Source: Anaerolineae bacterium (GTDB taxonomy: Bacteria; Chloroflexota; Anaerolineae; UBA3071). From it: DNA of 64,000 nt. Numbering within the stretch: the stretch's first letter is position 1; each line of letters opens with the position of its first letter. Made by a program: the position numbers and the translations under genes. The notes beneath the pieces are model-generated. The model was not told the DNA's origin, made no database searches, and saw nothing but the letters and a program-made list of their open reading frames with translations. Of this stretch, positions 4,787 to 42,877 are shown piece after piece. The stretch spans positions 18,992-82,991 of the forward strand of contig JARYMM010000002.1 in assembly GCA_029907105.1 (NCBI GenBank), written 5' to 3'.

Positions 4787-6892
4787 TCACCGTTTCGGGA
4801 CCTTGCCCTCCTCTTTCCTCCGCTCGATCACCTGCTCGGCCAGGCTGTCGGGCAGCAGGTCGTAGCGGGCAAATTCCAGGGTGAAGGTGCCACGGCCGGA
4901 GGTCAGGCTGCGCAGGGTCGTGGCGTAGCCAAAGGTTTCGGCCAACGGCACTTCGCCTTCCACGTGACGCATATCCCCGCGCGGGCGCAGGTCCCTCACC
5001 AGGCCGCGCCGCTGGCTCAGGTCGCCCACGACGGCGCCCACGTGTTCCTCGCCGACGGTCATGTCCAGGGACATGATCGGTTCGAGCAGCGCAGGGCGGG
5101 CCTGGCGCACCGCCTGGCGCACGGCCATAGAGCCGGCGATCTCGAAGTCCATAGCCGCCGAGTCCACCTCGTGAAAGCGGCCGCCCAGCAGCGTCACCCG
5201 CACGTCGGTGACCGGATAGCCGGCAAGGATGCCTCTTTCCAGCGCCTGGCGTACCCCCATCTCCGTAGGGCGCACGAAATCGCGGGGGAACTCGGCGGGC
5301 GGCGCTGCGTTCTCGAAGATGACCCCCGCGCCCCGCTCCAGCGGCTCAACGCGCACCTGCACCTCGGCAAAGTGGCCGCGGCCGCCGGTCTGCTTCTTGT
5401 AGCGCCCCACGGCCTCGGCGGTGCCGCGCACCGTCTCGCGGTAGGAAACCTGCGGCGGGCTGACCCGCGGCCTGACGCCGAACTCCCGCCGCAGCCGCTC
5501 CACGGCAATCTCCAGGTGCAGTTCGCCCATGCCGGCCAGCGTCTGCTCGTCCGTCTCCGCGTCGAAGCGACCGATCAGAGTGGGGTCTTCGGTGCATAGC
5601 CGCGCCACGGCCTGGCTGAGTTTCTCCCGTTCCTCTGCGGAGGCGGGCGTCAGGGCCACGGCGATGACCGGCTCCGGAAAGCGCAAGGTCTCCAGGACGA
5701 TGGGGTGCGCGGGATCGCAGAGTGTGTCGCCGGTGATGGCCGACTTGACGCCCACCAGGGCCACCACATCGCTGGCCGCCATGTGGTCCACCTGCTCGCG
5801 CTGGTTGCCGTGTATGCGGTAGATGCGGCCCACCCGCTCCTGGACATCGGCGCGAGGGTTGTAGACCATCTCCCCTACCCGCAGCGCGCCGGAAAAGACA
5901 CGTACCCAGGTGAGATGTCCCACGTGGGGGTCGGTGACGATTTTGAAGGCCGCCGCGCACAGCGGAGCGGAGGGGTCATCGGGCCGCTCGATGACCTCCT
6001 CTTCGTCGCCGGGGAGGGTGCCCAGCACAGGGGGCATGTCCACCGGCGCCGGCAGGTAGGCGACGATGGCGTCGAGCAGCGGTTGCACGCCGATGCGCTG
6101 GCGTGAGGCACCGCAGAGCACGGGCACCAGCTTGCCGGCGATGGTGGCGCGGCGCAGCGCCGCCTGGATCACGGCCACGTCAGGTTCAGGCCCCTCCAGG
6201 CATTGTTCCAGCAGTGTCTCATCCGTCTCGCAGATGGTGTCCACAAGCTTCTGCCGGGCCTCGGCGACCTGGGCGCGCAGGGTGGCGGGAACGGGTTCCA
6301 CCGTGGGATCGTCGGCGCCGGCGCGCCATAGAAGCGCCTGCTGGCTGAGCAGGTCCACGACGCCGGTGAAGGCAGCCTCGCGGCCGATGGGCAGTTGCAG
6401 GGGCACGGCGCGGGGGGTGAGCCGCTCGCGCACCTCGGCCAGCACACGGTCGAAGTCGGCGCCCAGCCGGTCGAGCTTGTTGATGAAAATGATGCGGGCC
6501 AGGTTCTCGCGGTTGGCGTGCCTCCAGACGGCCTCGGTTTGCGGCTCCACGCCGCCGACGCCGCACAACAGGACGACGGCTCCGTCAATGACGCGGATGG
6601 AGCGCACCACTTCGGCGGTGAAGTCAATGTGGCCGGGCGTGTCAATCAGGTTGATGCGGTGGCCGCGCCAGTGACAGGCGGTGGCAGCGGAGGTGATGGT
6701 GATGCCCCGCTCTCGTTCCTGCTCCATCCAGTCCAGTTGAGTGTCGCCGGCGTCCACACTGCCCAGGCGGTGCGTGCGGCCCGTGTAGTAGAGAATCGCC
6801 TCCGACGTGGTTGTCTTACCGGCGTCTACGTGGGCGAAGATGCCGATGATGCGTACTTTCTCGATGGGGGCTTCTTGCCTTTTTGCGCTCAT
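4787..6892 (-). CDS. fusA: translation elongation factor G (EF-G family GTPase); stand-alone copy outside the str operon, so probably an EF-G2-type paralog
   Basis: Has AHVDAGKTT (G1 motif) and DTPGHIDF, with full EF-G domain length. 701 aa. Confidence 0.9.
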   Translation of the reverse strand: MSAKRQEAPIEKVRIIGIFAHVDAGKTTTSEAILYYTGRTHRLGSVDAGDTQLDWMEQERERGITITSAATACHWRGHRINLIDTPGHIDFTAEVVRSIRVIDGAVVLLCGVGGVEPQTEAVWRHANRENLARIIFINKLDRLGADFDRVLAEVRERLTPRAVPLQLPIGREAAFTGVVDLLSQQALLWRAGADDPTVEPVPATLRAQVAEARQKLVDTICETDETLLEQCLEGPEPDVAVIQAALRRATIAGKLVPVLCGASRQRIGVQPLLDAIVAYLPAPVDMPPVLGTLPGDEEEVIERPDDPSAPLCAAAFKIVTDPHVGHLTWVRVFSGALRVGEMVYNPRADVQERVGRIYRIHGNQREQVDHMAASDVVALVGVKSAITGDTLCDPAHPIVLETLRFPEPVIAVALTPASAEEREKLSQAVARLCTEDPTLIGRFDAETDEQTLAGMGELHLEIAVERLRREFGVRPRVSPPQVSYRETVRGTAEAVGRYKKQTGGRGHFAEVQVRVEPLERGAGVIFENAAPPAEFPRDFVRPTEMGVRQALERGILAGYPVTDVRVTLLGGRFHEVDSAAMDFEIAGSMAVRQAVRQARPALLEPIMSLDMTVGEEHVGAVVGDLSQRRGLVRDLRPRGDMRHVEGEVPLAETFGYATTLRSLTSGRGTFTLEFARYDLLPDSLAEQVIERRKEEGKVPKR

Positions 6893-37747: not shown

Positions 37748-38255
37748 GTCTTTCACCTCCAAATCGTTTATAGCTGGAGCAGCGAGCAACAGGCAGCGCC
37801 TGTGGCAGGGGGGCGCACAAGGAAGCGCAGGCGGCCCTTACTGGCAAGTATAGCACAATCAGACCGGGACTGCAACAGTGGGGAAAGCGCCCAGGGTGCG
37901 GAATCCCTTCTTGATGAGGAAGCGCAGGTTGCCGGCTTTAGTGCCCACAGCGGGCGGCAACCTGGCCTCCCTCAGATCAAACAGATAACGCTGGCGCATG
38001 GGTCATCCTCGATGGGCAAAAGGCGCGGTGCTTGTTGGCACAAAGATGAGAGATGTGGTATGATATAGTGAATCTACTACATGATACACCAATATGCATC
38101 CCTGTCCAAAACGACATAGCGGTACCAGCCCGGGCTGACCGCGGGCGGCCAGGCTGTATGGTCGGATTGCGGCGATTATTCAGCCGCCAGGAGCAGCAGC
38201 GTCAGATCGTCGCTGCCACGCTGGAACTTCTGCAAGACCTGGAGGGAAGAAGACG

Positions 38256-39224
38256 ATGAAGCGATCCCTGCGTATCGTGTTGACCCTGTTAGCCGTCCTG
38301 CTGGCCATCCTGGCCATAGGCCCTTTTCTGGTGCCCGTGCCCGCGCTGCAGGATACCGTCCCGCCGCAACAACTGGCCGACCCCGACAGCCGCTTCATCG
38401 AGGTGAACGGCCTGACCGTCCATTACAAGATGGCCGGTCAGGGCGAGCCGGCGCTGGTGCTTTTGCACGGCTTCGCTGCCAGCACCTTCTCCTGGCGAGA
38501 GGTCATGGCCCCGCTGGCCGAGCTCGGCACCGTCGTGGCCTTCGATCGGCCTTCCTCCGGCCTGACCGAACGGCCCCTGCCCGGCGATTGGGTCGGCGAG
38601 AGTCCCTATAGCCGGGAGGCTCAAGCTGACCTCACCATCGGCCTGCTGGACGCCCTGGGCATCGGACAGGCGGTGCTGGTGGGCAACTCTGCCGGCGGCA
38701 CCATCGCTGCCCTCACCGCCCTGCGCTATCCGCAGCGCATCAGGGCATTGGTGCTGGTAGATGCGGCCATCTACGAGGGAGGCGGCTCCCCCGCCTGGTT
38801 GCGTCCGCTCTTCCACACGCCGCAGATGCGCCATCTTGGCCCGCTCATCGCCCGCACCATCCGCAGGCAGGGCGAGGAGCTGCTGCGCCTGGCCTGGCAC
38901 GATCCCTCCCGCATCACCGCCGAGGTGATGGATGGCTACCGCGAGGCTTTGCAAGCGGAGAACTGGGATCGCGCTCTGTGGGAGCTGACTCTGGCCAGCC
39001 GTGCTTCCGACCTGCCGGAGCGGCTGGACGAACTCACGTTGCCGGTGCTGGTCATCACCGGTGACGACGACCGCATCGTGCCCCCCGAACTGAGCGTGCG
39101 CCTGGCCGGGGAGCTGCCCAATGCTGAACTGGCGGTGCTTGCCAATTGCGGCCATGTGCCGCACGAGGAATGCCCGCAGCCCTTCCTGCAGGCGGTGACG
39201 GCGTTTCTGGATAGACTCCCGTAG
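38256..39224 (+). CDS. alpha/beta-hydrolase
   Basis: Has HGFAAS and GNSAGG nucleophile-elbow motifs. N-terminal transmembrane/signal segment. Confidence 0.75.
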   Translation: MKRSLRIVLTLLAVLLAILAIGPFLVPVPALQDTVPPQQLADPDSRFIEVNGLTVHYKMAGQGEPALVLLHGFAASTFSWREVMAPLAELGTVVAFDRPSSGLTERPLPGDWVGESPYSREAQADLTIGLLDALGIGQAVLVGNSAGGTIAALTALRYPQRIRALVLVDAAIYEGGGSPAWLRPLFHTPQMRHLGPLIARTIRRQGEELLRLAWHDPSRITAEVMDGYREALQAENWDRALWELTLASRASDLPERLDELTLPVLVITGDDDRIVPPELSVRLAGELPNAELAVLANCGHVPHEECPQPFLQAVTAFLDRLP

Positions 39225-39239
39225 AACTGAGGGGAGAAC

Positions 39240-39725
39240 ATGGCCAAAAGAGTACAAATCAACACACCAGCTCCAGACTTCACCCTGGAGGATTTCCGCG
39301 GGCAGGCTGTCAGCCTGGCCGATTTCCGCGGCCAGAAACACGTCTTCCTGGTCTTCAACCGCGGCTTCGCCTGACCCTTCTGCCGCCGGCACATGGCGCA
39401 GTTGCGCCAGGACTATGCGGAGTTCACGGCCCGAGATGCCGAGATCGTGGTCGTCGGCCCAGAGGATGCGACGGCCTTCGAACGTTACTGGACGCAGGAG
39501 AAGCTGCCTTTCCTTGGCCTGCCCGACCCCCAATCCAGCGTGCTCAAGCTGTACGGCCAGGAGGTGAACCTCTTCAAACTTGGCCGCATGCCGGCGCAAG
39601 TCCTGGTGGACAAGGACGGCACGGCCCGTTACGTGCACTACGGCCACTCCATGAGCGACATCCCCTCCAACGAGGAGTTGCTCGCCCTGCTGGATGAGCT
39701 GAAGTCCGCCATCGGCGCGCAATAG
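39240..39725 (+). CDS. PRXL2/AhpC-TSA_2-type thiol-disulfide oxidoreductase with in-frame TGA (codon 45) at the first Cys of its CxxC motif; candidate selenoprotein (UPFC)
   Basis: ATG 39240 is preceded by GAGGGGAG. The sequence ...HVFLVFNRGFA-TGA-PFCRRHMAQL... continues in the same frame into ORF 39393..39725. A hairpin lies 20 nt downstream of the TGA. Confidence 0.6.
39372..39374 (+). other. in-frame UGA, putative selenocysteine codon
   Basis: Occupies the Cys position of the RGF-C-P-x-C redoxin motif. Confidence 0.55.
39395..39408 (+). promoter_or_regulatory. hairpin GGCGC-AGTT-GCGCC, putative bacterial SECIS apical stem-loop
   Basis: Lies 20 nt 3' of the UGA. Shares the loop context GCAGTTGC with the hairpin after the second UGA. 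Confidence 0.4.
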
Positions 39726-39984
39726 CCTGTGGGTAGCCGTCAACCGCCTGCGCCGTCTGTTGGAGCCGGAGGCGAGCGGCGATTTCTACGTGGGCTTCTT
39801 CCATCTGGAGAACTACCGCCCCACTCTGGGGATTGACACCACCTTCGCCGACGGCCGCAGCTTCGAGGTGGACGGGGCATACTGGGAGCAACAGGCCAGC
39901 GACTACATGATCCGGGCGGTGGTTGTACACCGCTAAAGCTGTTTCAGAGCGGTCACCTGATTATTTTCGAGGGAGGTAAGCAAA

Positions 39985-40233
39985 ATGAGCAGCAAGAGAA
40001 TCCTGACGATCATTGTCATCGCCAGCACTGTGATGCTGGCAGTAGGGGCCGGCCCCCAGGTTAGCGGCAACGTCTATGCGCTGCCTGCTGCCCAGGCCGG
40101 CGTGACCATCCCCTACTCGGGGCGTCTGTCCCTTGCTTCGCCTGGGGATGCTGCGCAGAGCGCCGAGGCCGGGCAGCCTGCGGCCGACGGAGCCTACGAT
40201 TTCAGCTTCGCCCTGTACTTTAGTTTCCGCTAA
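39985..40233 (+). CDS. small secreted hypothetical protein (82 aa)
   Basis: Signal peptide MSSKRILTIIVIASTVMLAVGAG. Confidence 0.4.
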   Translation: MSSKRILTIIVIASTVMLAVGAGPQVSGNVYALPAAQAGVTIPYSGRLSLASPGDAAQSAEAGQPAADGAYDFSFALYFSFR

Positions 40234-40244
40234 CTTGTTTTGCC

Positions 40245-40289
40245 ACTACATGTAGTAGCTTTGTTGATTCAGGCTACCGCATGTAGTAG
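40245..40289. promoter_or_regulatory. two copies of CATGTAGTAG (the first within the 12-bp palindrome ACTACATGTAGT) spaced ~34 bp apart, 30-70 nt upstream of the repeat-protein gene; candidate operator
   Basis: 40245..40258 and 40280..40289. Confidence 0.35.
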
Positions 40290-40315
40290 GTCATCGGAGC
40301 GCAAAATGGCCCAAA

Positions 40316-42037
40316 ATGGCTCAAAACCCCAACTTAGCGGAAAGTAGAGTGTACGATGTCCCGGCTGGCGGGGAGCCGCTGTGGACGGAGACGCAGGAAG
40401 GCGTGATGGTGCAGGGGGGCGCCTTCACGGCCTTGCTGGGGAGCGTGAACGGCATTCCCCCGGAGGTATTGGCGGGGAAAGAGCTCTGGCTGGCGGTGGC
40501 TGTGCGCGGGCCAGGGGAGGGGGAGTTCACGCTGCTGGCGCCGCGGCAGGGGGTGAGCGCCGCCTCGTCGCCGACCGGCGCGGCCGGCGGCATGACCTGC
40601 CCTCACGACCACTTTGGGGAAACCTGGACCGGCAGCGGCTCTTCTGGGCTGAACATCACGAACACCGGCGCCGGCAACGGCATCACGCTCCACAATAACA
40701 GCCAGTTTGCCACACTCCTGGCATACAACGCCTCCAGCGGCACCGGCGTGTACGGTTCCAGCAGCACCAGCGGCAAGGGCGTGTGGGGCTTCAGCACCAC
40801 CGGCTTCGGGGTGTATGGAGAAAGCCCCCGCGGCACGGGCGTGTATGGGACGACCGCGATCACGACGGGCACGACGAGCGGCGTAGTAGGCGTGGTCTCC
40901 TCGCCCGACGGCTACGGCGTGTACGGCATGAACACCACTAACGGCACGGGCGTGTATGGCTATAGCAACGGCGGTGCTGGCGTGAATGCCCGGGGTGCGA
41001 ACGCCGTAGTGGGTATCTCCAGCTCGCCCGGCTATGCCGCGATCTACGGTCGCAATGACGCCACCACGGGCACCGGCAGCGGCATCTGGGGCGAGGCCAA
41101 GTCTCCCGACGGCTATGGCGGCTACTTCAAGAACACGGCCGGCGATGGCGTGCGTGTGGAGTCGGTTGGCGGCAATGGTGTGTACGTGCACTCGGCGACC
41201 GATAATGGCGTGGAAGTGCGGTCGGCGGGCGATCATGGTGTGAAGGTGGAGTCGGCGTACTACGACGGTGTGTTTGTGAACTCCGCGGGCATCCACGGCC
41301 TGTACGTGAATTCGGCGGGCGGCAACGGCGTACTCGTGGGGTCAGCCGTGGATAGCGGCGTGTACGTGCAGTCGGCGCACAAAGGCTTGTATGTGGAGTC
41401 GTCAGAGTTGTACGGCGTGCACGCATTTGGAAAGTGGATGGGAGTATGGGGCGAAGTAGAAGGAACCCGCCATGATTGGGGCCTCCACACAACCGACTAC
41501 ATATACGCGCTTAGCTACTTTCTGCTTGGTTCGGTGATGCACGTCATGCAGAACGGGGGCAGCGAGCCTCTGGAACCGGGGGATGTGGTCGTCTTCAGCG
41601 GCCTGGGCGCGCCCCTGGAGGAGGGTGTGCCGACGGTCCAGGTGGCCAAAGCTGCCTCAGCTAACAGCACCGGCGTGGCCGGCGTGGTGTTCAGCCGCTA
41701 TAATCCCCTCATTGTGCCGGAGAACGCGAAGCCGGGAGAGGACAGCATGCCCTCTGGCTGGGAGTTCATGCCGGCGGGGCCCGTGCCGCCGGGCGAATAC
41801 CTGACGGTGGTGATTCAGGGCCCGGCTCAGGTGAAAGCCAGCGCCGTCGCCGGCCCCATCCGGTCCGGCGACCTGCTCTCCAGCGCCCCTGAGGCCGGCT
41901 ATGCCGCCAAAGCGGCCGAGGTCTCGCTGGGAGGGGTCAAGATGGCCCTGCCGGGGACGGTCTTCGGCAAGGCGCTGGAAGCGCTGGACGCCGGCCAAGA
42001 CACCGGCCTGGTATGGGTATGCGTGACGCTGCAGTGA
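40316..42037 (+). CDS. repetitive beta-solenoid-like protein (Gly/Tyr/Val-rich 10-11-residue repeats), function unknown
   Basis: Repeats GTGVYG, NGVYVHSATD, NGVEVRSAGD, HGVKVESAYY, DGVFVNSAGI, HGLYVNSAGG, NGVLVGSAVD, SGVYVQSA. No signal peptide. Confidence 0.6.
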   Translation: MAQNPNLAESRVYDVPAGGEPLWTETQEGVMVQGGAFTALLGSVNGIPPEVLAGKELWLAVAVRGPGEGEFTLLAPRQGVSAASSPTGAAGGMTCPHDHFGETWTGSGSSGLNITNTGAGNGITLHNNSQFATLLAYNASSGTGVYGSSSTSGKGVWGFSTTGFGVYGESPRGTGVYGTTAITTGTTSGVVGVVSSPDGYGVYGMNTTNGTGVYGYSNGGAGVNARGANAVVGISSSPGYAAIYGRNDATTGTGSGIWGEAKSPDGYGGYFKNTAGDGVRVESVGGNGVYVHSATDNGVEVRSAGDHGVKVESAYYDGVFVNSAGIHGLYVNSAGGNGVLVGSAVDSGVYVQSAHKGLYVESSELYGVHAFGKWMGVWGEVEGTRHDWGLHTTDYIYALSYFLLGSVMHVMQNGGSEPLEPGDVVVFSGLGAPLEEGVPTVQVAKAASANSTGVAGVVFSRYNPLIVPENAKPGEDSMPSGWEFMPAGPVPPGEYLTVVIQGPAQVKASAVAGPIRSGDLLSSAPEAGYAAKAAEVSLGGVKMALPGTVFGKALEALDAGQDTGLVWVCVTLQ

Positions 42038-42048
42038 GGAGGCCGGCG

Positions 42049-42321
42049 ATGAAGGGGATAATGCTTCTGCTAACCTTGCTGGTTCTCCTCCTGCTGGTCG
42101 GCGCCGTGCTGGCCCAACCGGGCGGGCCCGGCCCGGCCGTCTGGTACACGGTCGAGGAGGGGATGGCCTCCGGCGGGGGTTATCGCCTGACCGGGCTGGC
42201 CTGGCAGTTTAGCGGCATTGCCAGCGGCGGAAAGTATCGTCTGCTGGGGCCGGCGGCGCCGGCCCTGCGGGGCAACGGCTGCTGCTGCACCTATCTGCCC
42301 TGTATCGTGCGGAGGTGGTGA
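42049..42321 (+). CDS. small secreted Cys-containing protein (90 aa) with duplicated GGxYRLxG motif and C-terminal GNGCCCTYLPCIVRRW
   Basis: GAGGAGG ribosome-binding site 7 nt before ATG 42049. Signal peptide MKGIMLLLTLLVLLLLVGAVLA. Confidence 0.45.
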   Translation: MKGIMLLLTLLVLLLLVGAVLAQPGGPGPAVWYTVEEGMASGGGYRLTGLAWQFSGIASGGKYRLLGPAAPALRGNGCCCTYLPCIVRRW

Positions 42322-42448
42322 GAGATATCCGAGCCTCAGGCAACACACAAGTCGCTCGTGGCCGTCCAGCAGGAGCACGTGTTATACGAGCGGTATCGGG
42401 CAGCACGCCCCAACGCCGATCGTGGATGCCACATAACCGTTCATTGCT

Positions 42449-42877
42449 CTACAAATCCAGCACACACTGCACCACGTGCTGCCCGTTCTCGTCCAGGAAG
42501 TACTTCAATCCCCCGTAGGTGGCGGCTTTGACTTCCACCTTCGGCTGGTGCCGCTCGATGTCCATCGGCTCGCCGCGGGCGATGCCCTCCAGCACATAGC
42601 CGTCATCGGTCCGCTCCAGGCGGGTGACCTGGAAATCGCTGAAGAACAGCCCCTCGATGTCGCGCTGCGCCAGTAACTCGTTGAGCAGCTCCACGAACAA
42701 AGCCGCCGGGTCACCCGCCGCGCAGCGGATAGGGACTTCCTGCCGCGCCACAACCCGCTCCAGATCCACCATCAAATGAAACAGGCCGAGGGCACCATCT
42801 GTCAGCGCCTCGGCCAGCGTCCGCCCGCAACTCCGCAGCCCCACGTCGGCTGTGTGGTCAAGATATTCGTAAGGCAT
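42449..42877 (-). CDS. archease (RtcB ligase activator/chaperone)
   Basis: Starts MPYEYLDHTADVGLR (archease N-terminal signature). 142 aa. Confidence 0.85.
   Translation of the reverse strand: MPYEYLDHTADVGLRSCGRTLAEALTDGALGLFHLMVDLERVVARQEVPIRCAAGDPAALFVELLNELLAQRDIEGLFFSDFQVTRLERTDDGYVLEGIARGEPMDIERHQPKVEVKAATYGGLKYFLDENGQHVVQCVLDL

Follow-up and report, generated by a model that had tools for sequence, protein, structure and literature searches.

A cassette gene of an Anaerolineae bacterium very probably split by a 132-bp MITE

The 82-aa open reading frame (ORF), the two CATGTAGTAG sites and the 573-aa ORF found in the window (the whole stretch of DNA that was analysed, 64 kb long) are very probably the parts of one gene, which was cut by a MITE of 132 bp. 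As the sequence is read, three ORFs follow each other on the forward strand: ORF 1 (39985-40233) codes for 82 aa with a signal-peptide-like N-terminus, ORF 2 (40316-42037), listed with 573 aa, has its ATG at 40316 inside the MITE, and ORF 3 (42049-42321) is a conserved partner gene of 90 aa with a signal peptide. The cassette at this locus is composed of two genes, not three. Its neighbours are housekeeping genes and there are no phage genes nearby. The profile search returned no Pfam domain in any of the three ORFs, and the promoter/terminator scan of the region 39700-42500 gave no promoter-like site.

Reconstruction of the large gene

Upon deletion of 136 bp (40219-40354) the 82-aa and the 573-aa ORFs were joined in frame and a protein of 638 aa was obtained, the restored frame at the join reading ...DGAYDFSFALY followed directly by DVPAGGEPLWTETQ... 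The 5' part of this gene 1 (39985-40217, forward strand) runs from codon 1 to the second base of codon 78, and codes for the signal peptide and for the initial strands of an N-terminal beta-sandwich domain, while the 3' part (40355-42037, forward strand) contains codons 79-638 and the stop. The 82-aa protein had been considered a separate gene in the preliminary description; it turned out to consist of codons 1-78 of the large gene together with four codons and a stop from the insertion, since past 40217 the frame runs through four element-derived codons (FSFR) to a TAA and ends at 40233. The same description stated that the 573-aa protein has no signal peptide. This is true for the ORF as read, but the intact protein does have one, and it is missing from the 573-aa product only because the N-terminus was cut off.

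The fused 638-aa protein could be aligned with uninterrupted homologues from end to end and no gap was seen at the join. The proteins aligned across the join were P0002 (660 aa, 75% identity), P0003 (539 aa) and six more, and Y78 and G84 were invariant in this alignment. The homologues of the large protein number in the hundreds, the closest intact one showing 69-75% identity; an empty-site allele of the same species was not found. Alignment with the homologues revealed no other lesion in either half of the gene. Since both halves are otherwise intact, the insertion appears to be evolutionarily recent.

In the AlphaFold model residues 40-145 form one beta-sandwich, with block-mean pLDDT values mostly between 84 and 97 and with a low-confidence insert at residues ~51-60. 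Helix 3-20 is the predicted signal peptide, the early strands are 42-47 and 69-78, and the predicted strands 69-78 and 88-98 flank the join. The CxHxH motif CPHDHFGETWTG (40598-40633, forward strand) comprises C160, H162, H164, E167, W169 and G171. All six of these residues were invariant in 9 full-length homologues, and H162 and W169 showed at least 90% conservation among 120 sequences.

The inserted element and its family

The MITE occupies positions 40218-40349 (forward strand, 132 bp, CTTTAGTTTCC...GGAAAGTAGAG) and has no coding capacity of its own, the reading frames through it being read-through from the flanking gene only. Its GC content is 45%, compared with 65% in the flanks. The left terminal inverted repeat is CTTTAGTTTCCGCTAACTTG (40218-40237) and the right one is CAACTTAGCGGAAAGTAGAG (40330-40349), with CAASTTAGCGGAAASTARAG as the terminal repeat sequence; the arms 40217-40237 and 40330-40350 are 21 nt long and 86% complementary. 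The target-site duplication is TGTA on the left (40214-40217), or TGTAC with the initial C of the element included, and TGTA followed by C on the right (40350-40353). The duplication here is thus of 4 bp, or of 5 bp provided that the initial C of the element has been lost, compared with the clean 5 bp found at six other copies.

Two internal palindromes are present in the element, GCCACTACATGTAGTAGC at 40242-40259 (family consensus CCACTAYATGTAGTRG) and GCTACCGCATGTAGTAGG at 40273-40290 (family consensus ACTRYATATAGTGGG), which hold the first and the second CATGTAGTAG, respectively. The exact copies of the latter are at 40249-40258 and 40280-40289, and the palindrome ACTACATGTAGT (40245-40256) overlaps the first of them. 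The two copies, the first one placed in the palindrome ACTACATGTAGT, had already been recognised in the preliminary description, but their spacing is 31 bp from start to start and not ~34 bp. The suggestion that the pair represents a dedicated regulator site had to be abandoned, since it is an internal motif of the MITE which is conserved in the MITE family, occurs at unrelated sites in other genomes and is absent from the intact homologous genes. With at most one mismatch CATGTAGTAG occurs 11 times in the window versus 1.03 expected, 3 of the 11 being in this element. No second copy of the element was detected by BLAST in the rest of the 64-kb window, to which the copy number in the source genome refers, this genome not being in the searched collection.

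A scan for the two repeat cores located nine loci in four other Anaerolineae/Chloroflexota MAGs. Five copies, 98-100% identical, are inserted at different sites in the CAYMKL01 MAG, and an own exact 5-bp duplication (TTCAA, TACAA, CAGAA, TCTAA, GTGAA or TGATA) was present in six of the seven copies examined in three MAGs. In an alignment of 13 copies the columns of the repeat cores show little or no variation, and the CATGTAGTAG palindromes are kept in the ~130-bp MITE subfamily irrespective of the flanking genes. The terminal repeat was found in more than 120 metagenome stretches, many matches of the family lying at contig ends. The distance to the partner repeat is bimodal, either 103-268 bp or, in about 25 cases, 1476-1542 bp, and the long form (~1.5 kb) encodes a DDE transposase of 430-450 aa. 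Since there are related copies which carry their own duplications, and the ends are common to transposase-encoding insertion sequences, the element is a MITE. No published description of this MITE family was found in the literature on MITEs in Chloroflexi and on IS701 MITEs.

Similarly to bacterial MITEs, the element is short, non-coding and AT-richer than its host, with terminal inverted repeats of ~20 nt and a short target duplication, and its family has near-identical copies in one genome (in another MAG) and terminal repeats in common with a transposase-encoding element. Only the terminal ~20 bp are common with the long element, and the palindromes are specific for the MITE. Moreover, the window copy interrupts a coding sequence, the other copies examined being mostly intergenic. 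The internal palindromes were absent from the ten full-length insertion sequences searched, which gives no ground for regarding them as transposase sites common to MITE and parent.

IS701 elements are ~1.4-1.55 kb long according to ISfinder and generate 4-5-bp target duplications. The parent element resembles the IS701/IS4 type in its size of ~1.5 kb, its single DDE transposase and its terminal inverted repeats, and its length range fits that of IS701. Duplications of 4-5 bp were seen on the MITE copies, but no clean one on the full-length insertion sequences examined, and the transposase stays far below the family cut-offs: its best profile was NF049999 (IS701) with 41 and 34 bits versus a cut-off of 170, followed by NF033540 (21 bits, cut-off 150) and PF01609 (DDE_Tnp_1; 17-22 bits versus 23). 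More than 4400 homologues of the transposase exist without a name in their sources. Judged from these profile scores, the parent represents at best a distant or unclassified branch.

Origin of the split gene and alternative explanations

We propose that gene 1 originally coded for a 638-aa secreted protein which would have contained, in this order, the signal peptide, the beta-sandwich, the CxHxH motif, a variable stalk of Gly-rich repeats with a period of 10 and, at the C-terminus, a beta domain of the phage-decoration type, and that gene 2, starting 12 bp downstream, coded for a 90-aa secreted Cys-rich partner. The 132-bp MITE, presumably derived from a ~1.5-kb IS701/IS4-like insertion sequence and, being non-autonomous, moved in trans by the DDE transposase of the latter, would have entered codon 78 of gene 1 and duplicated TGTA(C). 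The insertion would part the signal peptide, together with the initial strands of the N-domain, from the remainder, with a stop four codons into the element, which by chance would supply an in-frame ATG for the 573-aa ORF; the two CATGTAGTAG sites would be the MITE's own internal palindromes. Since any product of the 3' ORF would be devoid of an export signal and of half of a folded domain, we infer that the insertion allele is most likely a null allele, i.e. the gene is inactivated. The consensus sequence of a MAG could mask a mixed population at the insertion site.

The existence of three separate genes under a dedicated regulator, which would bind the duplicated CATGTAGTAG sites, is very unlikely. 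The ORFs are separate as the sequence stands, the motif is located directly 5' of the 573-aa ORF and the 10-mer is over-represented in the window, but in the homologues one continuous ORF runs through the join, which is bridged by the folded N-domain. The motif pair is part of a mobile element present at unrelated loci, and it is absent from the intact cassettes in L010, L015 and L017, which have an uninterrupted gene. It is just as hard to believe that the interruption is an artefact of the assembly, with a repeat misplaced in the MAG consensus. MITEs and insertion sequences are a frequent cause of breaks and errors in metagenome assemblies, and the frequent family matches at contig ends would agree with this, but here the halves of one gene on the two sides of the element match exactly, and the target duplication is like those of other copies in length and type. 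A chimeric join would neither create a duplication nor leave the two flanks collinear. It appears extremely improbable that a full-length protein is nevertheless made, either by splicing of the 136 bp out of the RNA like a small intron or by translational bypassing of the segment. With a minimum free energy of -53.6 kcal/mol the segment is strongly structured, and its removal restores the frame. However, the Rfam search of 39900-40500 gave no relevant match at E <= 1, and for the 13 MITE copies RNAalifold yielded a covariation term of 0.08 kcal/mol, the sole invariant helix being the pairing of the terminal repeats. Since there is no covariation among these copies beyond the terminal repeats, there is no case for a structured RNA. 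Furthermore, the relatives are mostly intergenic and have target duplications, the ends are those of a transposase-encoding element, and group I or II introns are far larger than 136 bp.

A functional role of the insertion, either as a reversible on/off switch of a surface fibre operated by precise excision or as the source of a start codon for a truncated, non-exported protein, is also regarded as quite unlikely. Reversible switching of surface structures by insertion sequences occurs in other bacteria (IS492, IS256, IS1301), which speaks for such a role. In line with it the frame is restored exactly once the element and the duplication are removed, no other lesion is present in either half of the gene, and the in-frame ATG at 40316 is preceded by GGAG 17 nt upstream. 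However, there was no sign of excision or of mixed alleles, the spacing of GGAG is poor and the scan detected no promoter-like site; the product, without a signal peptide and with half of the N-domain, is unlikely to fold or to be exported, and the other copies of the family are mostly found between genes, as expected of a selfish element. The wider idea that the intact cassette is an undescribed cell-surface fibre system of Anaerolineae, with the 90-aa protein as an obligatory partner of the large one, in which insertion and excision of the MITE serve as the on/off switch is unlikely as well. The event at this locus is an ordinary insertion, and the preferred explanation is the single gene cut by the MITE.

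The intact cassette and its predicted products

The Gly/Val/Tyr/Ser-rich repeat region of gene 1 extends from 40733 to 41470 (forward strand), and it is repetitive on the DNA level as well, with periods of 30 and 33 bp (TRF). The Gly/Val/Tyr-rich 10-residue repeat noted earlier in the 573-aa protein is real, since the autocorrelation at lag 10 gave z = 9.4 for residues 355-465 of the reconstructed protein. The most regular stretch (~41141-41410), with a period of 10 residues, is made up of about eight to nine near-regular xxGVxVxSAx units with a looser G(T)GVYG region before them, and the homologues differ in the length of the repeat region. In the AlphaFold monomer pLDDT was about 40-50 for this region and almost no secondary structure was predicted for residues 150-460; a confident monomeric beta-solenoid was not obtained from this monomer model.

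The C-terminal beta domain (41528-42034, forward strand) is related to DUF7452 and has the fold of the trimeric phage capsid decoration/cement proteins, on the solved members of which it superposes in the structural comparison. The same fold occurs in the C-terminal auto-chaperone fragment of phi29 gp12 (3gqh) and in the gp8.5 head-fibre base (6qyy). The sequence identity with these phage proteins is only 12-23%, and unlike them the protein studied here is found in a cellular context with a Sec-type signal peptide, and a trimerisation/chaperone role of its domain is putative. A sequence-profile search of the PDB with the family alignment gave no match. The C-domains of P0071 and P0100 matched DUF7452 (PF24249) with 38.7 and 49.5 bits versus a gathering score of 28.2, but at E <= 1 the 573-aa ORF, and at E <= 0.1 P0002 and P0003, had no match to any Pfam family, including haemagglutinin, tail-fibre and ice-binding families. 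Since DUF7452 is matched by homologues but not by the window protein, the relationship is indirect; it is a family without known function, and the literature search yielded no paper in which it is named.

NCBIfam searches with P0002, P0003 and P0033 gave only sub-threshold Bdello_MAT_N matches. The N-domains of P0033 (E 0.0076) and P0002 (E 0.096) matched weakly the mosaic adhesive trimer (MAT) fibre proteins of Bdellovibrio (NF053851), the scores of 12-16 bits (cut-off 60) not being significant alone. The overall logic of the two proteins is similar, as in both of them a conserved N-terminal part is followed by a repetitive stalk and then by a C-terminal module, but the stalk and the tip differ.

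The partner gene (42049-42321, forward strand) has a GAGGAGG ribosome-binding site 6 nt 5' of its ATG. Its product possesses, as described earlier, a signal peptide, a duplicated GGxYRLxG motif (GGGYRLTG / GGKYRLLG, the two GGGYRL repeats) and a CCC tail (CCCTYLPC). This 90-aa protein has 972 homologues, the tail of the family is CCCxYLPC with an invariant CCC..P core, and in the 4 loci examined the gene begins 12 bp past the large gene, the neighbours being otherwise different. The downstream gene is a genuine conserved partner, and together with the large gene it is a widespread uncharacterised family. NCBIfam gave sub-threshold matches at most with this small ORF, and in its AlphaFold model (pLDDT 55) the signal-peptide helix is the sole confident part.

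On the basis of the fold similarity of one domain, we infer that the intact large protein may be an extracellular trimeric fibre. The C-terminal domain would nucleate the trimerisation of the repeat stalk, and the small Cys-rich protein could be an accessory or anchoring partner of the fibre. The earlier guess of a surface fibre is compatible with the similarity of the C-domain to trimeric decoration and tailspike-chaperone modules of phages, but the three-gene module in which it was framed was wrong.

The main value of these results is corrective, as an apparent three-gene module with an operator is a transposon-split gene, and pipelines calling an 82-aa "secreted protein" and a leaderless protein of 562-573 aa are wrong in both cases. 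As a by-product, an apparently undescribed and abundant pair, a ~1.5-kb IS701/IS4-like insertion sequence and its MITEs, came to light in Anaerolineae, which fragments metagenome assemblies. The other by-product is a widespread conserved two-gene cassette, in which a trimer domain resembling those of phage decoration proteins is joined to a repetitive stalk, and which may reasonably be considered a candidate surface structure of the poorly cultured filamentous Anaerolineae.

One gene interrupted by an insertion

The sequence features of the preliminary description (three ORFs, the 10-mer pair, the palindrome and the repeats) are all present in the window. As called, ORF 1 (39985-40233) codes for 82 aa, ORF 2 (40316-42037) for 573 aa and ORF 3 (42049-42321; the longest possible ORF starts at 42013) for 90 aa. 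The first ends with ...DGAYDFSFALY-FSFR and a stop, the second reads MAQNPNLAESRVY-DVPAGGEPLWTETQ..., and between them lie an inverted repeat of 21 nt (40217-40237 / 40330-40350, 86% complementary) and a direct repeat TGTA(C) at 40214-40218 and 40350-40354. Removal of 136 bp (40219-40354) brought ORFs 1 and 2 in frame and restored a protein of 638 aa. In a protein search with this query, the existing annotation P0001 (QHJ81_01090, Anaerolineae bacterium, 562 aa) covered only 88% of it, and uninterrupted homologues, P0002 (660 aa) and P0003 (539 aa) among them, were found at 100% query coverage. The alignment was seamless across the join (DGAYDFSFALY followed by DVPAGGEPLWTETQEG in the window, DGAYDFAFALYDAPTGGEPLWTETQED in P0003), and the flanking Y78 and G84 were invariant. 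Residues 40-145 were predicted as a single beta-sandwich (AlphaFold, 120 sequences, block-mean pLDDT mostly 84-97) with a low-confidence insert at residues ~51-60, the join falling between the predicted strands 69-78 and 88-98.

ORFs 1 and 2 are thus one gene, and the proposed three-gene trio was an artefact of reading the locus as if nothing had been inserted. What had been called an 82-aa "small secreted protein" is the large protein's signal peptide and first strands; the 573-aa ORF does lack a signal peptide as read, but its N-terminus was severed by the insertion.

The inserted element and its presumed parents

The insertion (40218-40349, 132 bp, CTTTAGTTTCC...GGAAAGTAGAG) is delimited by these inverted and direct repeats, has a GC content of 45% against 65% in the flanks, and its predicted fold is a long hairpin (-53.6 kcal/mol). 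Its duplication can be read as TGTA (4 bp) or as TGTAC (5 bp, the first C of the element being lost), the restored sequence being identical either way. No further copy was found within the 64-kb window. When 185,579 reference genomes were scanned for both repeat cores at 85-115 nt spacing, nine loci were obtained in four other Anaerolineae/Chloroflexota MAGs, six of them in one MAG, where five copies share 98-100% mutual identity at different places. Among seven copies examined in three MAGs, mostly intergenic, six carry their own exact 5-bp duplication (the duplications were TTCAA, TACAA twice, CAGAA, TCTAA, GTGAA and TGATA). Locus L005 holds two copies head to tail with one end in common (59-316), and in L009 a complete copy is preceded, 47 bp upstream, by a lone extra left terminal repeat (5013-5030); both arrangements point to nested or repeated insertion.

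In metagenomes, a degenerate 20-nt pattern of the terminal repeat matched more than 120 stretches, a lower bound. The distance to the opposite terminal repeat was bimodal, 103-268 bp or, in about 25 loci, 1476-1542 bp. The long form (full-length in L025, L028, L037, L041 and L063) has only the ~20-bp ends in common with the MITE and codes for a single protein of 430-450 aa, whose matches to DDE_Tnp_1 and to models of the IS701 and IS4 families stay below threshold, those to IS701 and IS4 by a wide margin; NF049999 scores best (E = 1e-10, 41 bits, cut-off 170). More than 4400 homologues without a name were found for this transposase, most of them on contigs of ~1.5 kb, and the parents may represent an unclassified insertion-sequence group. 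Taken together, the inverted repeats, the duplications, the copies at multiple sites in other genomes and the ends common with the long form define the inserted piece as a MITE that an IS701/IS4-like DDE transposase mobilises in trans. By length, the short elements group at about 103, 122-133, 151-175 and 205-268 bp, all with the same terminal repeats, and therefore several independent MITE lineages seem to have arisen from a single insertion-sequence family. Many of the matches fall at the ends of contigs; the family thus breaks up assemblies.

The 10-mer CATGTAGTAG, taken earlier for a dedicated regulator site, occurs exactly at 40249 and 40280 (31 bp spacing), the first copy enclosed by the palindrome ACTACATGTAGT. 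Both copies lie within the MITE, and when 13 members of the ~130-bp subfamily, taken from different genomes, were aligned, the sites proved conserved as CCACTAYATGTAGTRG and ACTRYATATAGTGGG irrespective of the flanking genes. The genes of P0002, P0003, P0007 and P0033 are continuous through the corresponding position; therefore the sites are absent from intact cassettes, and the pair is not an operator for this gene. They were absent from the parent insertion sequences sampled, no Rfam match was found for the element region, and the aligned MITE copies gave no covariation. The CATGTAGTAG sites are a feature of the mobile element; like the trio, the regulator-site reading arose from taking the split gene as it stands. 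A third exact copy (38074-38083, minus strand), with no other likeness to the MITE around it, is located in AT-rich intergenic DNA upstream of an alpha/beta-hydrolase gene starting at 38256; near-matches in the window, this copy included, numbered 11 against 1.03 expected, about a 10-fold excess.

The intact cassette and its neighbourhood

The small downstream gene belongs with the large one, as had been supposed. In L010, L015 and L017, the loci of P0003, P0033 and P0007, a gene of 87-96 aa starts exactly 12 bp past the large gene, as in the window, and the remaining neighbours differ. All four small proteins (51-71% identity) carry a signal peptide and two GGxYRL repeats, and their CCCxYLPC tail is invariant; a predicted structure of the small protein was uninformative (pLDDT 55). 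A profile search gave 972 homologues, all about 90 aa, with C78, C79, C80 and P84 invariant in 120 of them; at least 12 were on contigs equal in size to those bearing large-protein homologues, and in two annotated MAGs the pair has locus tags one step apart (QHJ81_01090/01095, H5T61_13015/13010).

Pfam and NCBIfam gave no significant match for the large-protein family or for the small ORF, except DUF7452, at the C-terminal domain of two homologues. The C-terminal ~170 residues were predicted with pLDDT above 90; in phi29, decoration-type or chaperone-type modules trimerise at the spike or fibre end. In the Gly/Val/Tyr/Ser-rich region the repeat period is 10 residues (autocorrelation lag 10, z = 9.4), with about eight to nine near-regular xxGVxVxSAx units 3' of a looser G(T)GVYG region. 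Of the suggested beta-solenoid the period stands, but no confident monomeric AlphaFold model of the stalk was obtained. The stalk also varies in length among homologues, which together is compatible with an obligate oligomer but no proof of one. C-terminal to the N-domain, the motif C-x-H-x-H-x2-E-x-W-x-G (CPHDHFGETWTG, 40598-40633, residues 160-171 of the restored protein) has its C, H, H, E, W and G invariant in nine full-length homologues; with the invariant CCC..P core of the partner it hints at metal binding or cross-linking. For Bdello_MAT_N, the NCBIfam model of Bdellovibrio mosaic adhesive trimer fibres, the N-terminal domains of P0033 (residues 31-99, E 0.0076) and P0002 (45-102, E 0.096) gave weak matches of 12-16 bits, below the cut-off of 60. 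Our working model of the intact cassette, a tentative and rather doubtful one, is a trimeric fibre that is secreted and has a small accessory protein rich in Cys.

Directly upstream of the cassette, a 58-aa ORF (39760-39936, plus strand, ...GDFYVGFFHLENYRPTLGIDTTFADGRSFEVDGAYWEQQASDYMIRAVVVHR) without Pfam match looks like what is left of the C-terminal part of a longer gene. Before it, a peroxiredoxin-like gene (39240-39725, plus strand) contains a TGA in frame (39372-39374), exactly where the redox-active Cys would stand, in a UxxC motif (...FNRGFA[TGA]PFCRRH...). With Cys for the stop, a 161-aa protein results, matching positions 1-123 of 124 of the AhpC-TSA model (E = 3e-23); a hairpin starts ~11 nt past the TGA, its stability not above shuffled controls. 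The gene probably encodes a selenocysteine-containing protein, split in two by ORF callers.

Probable consequence of the insertion

Translation of the 5' fragment would stop after 78 residues of the gene and the added FSFR. The 3' ORF would take its start ATG from the MITE, with a poorly placed GGAG, and no promoter-like site was seen near it; a product, if made, would be without the export signal and half of the N-domain. Nothing supports the insertion as a reversible switch, an unlikely though conceivable reading. Because both gene halves are otherwise intact, a recent null allele would, judged from the sequence, explain the locus most simply. The MITE-interrupted gene is a real but ordinary finding, and the MITE / insertion-sequence family and the two-gene cassette appear to be new to the literature, though of known kinds.
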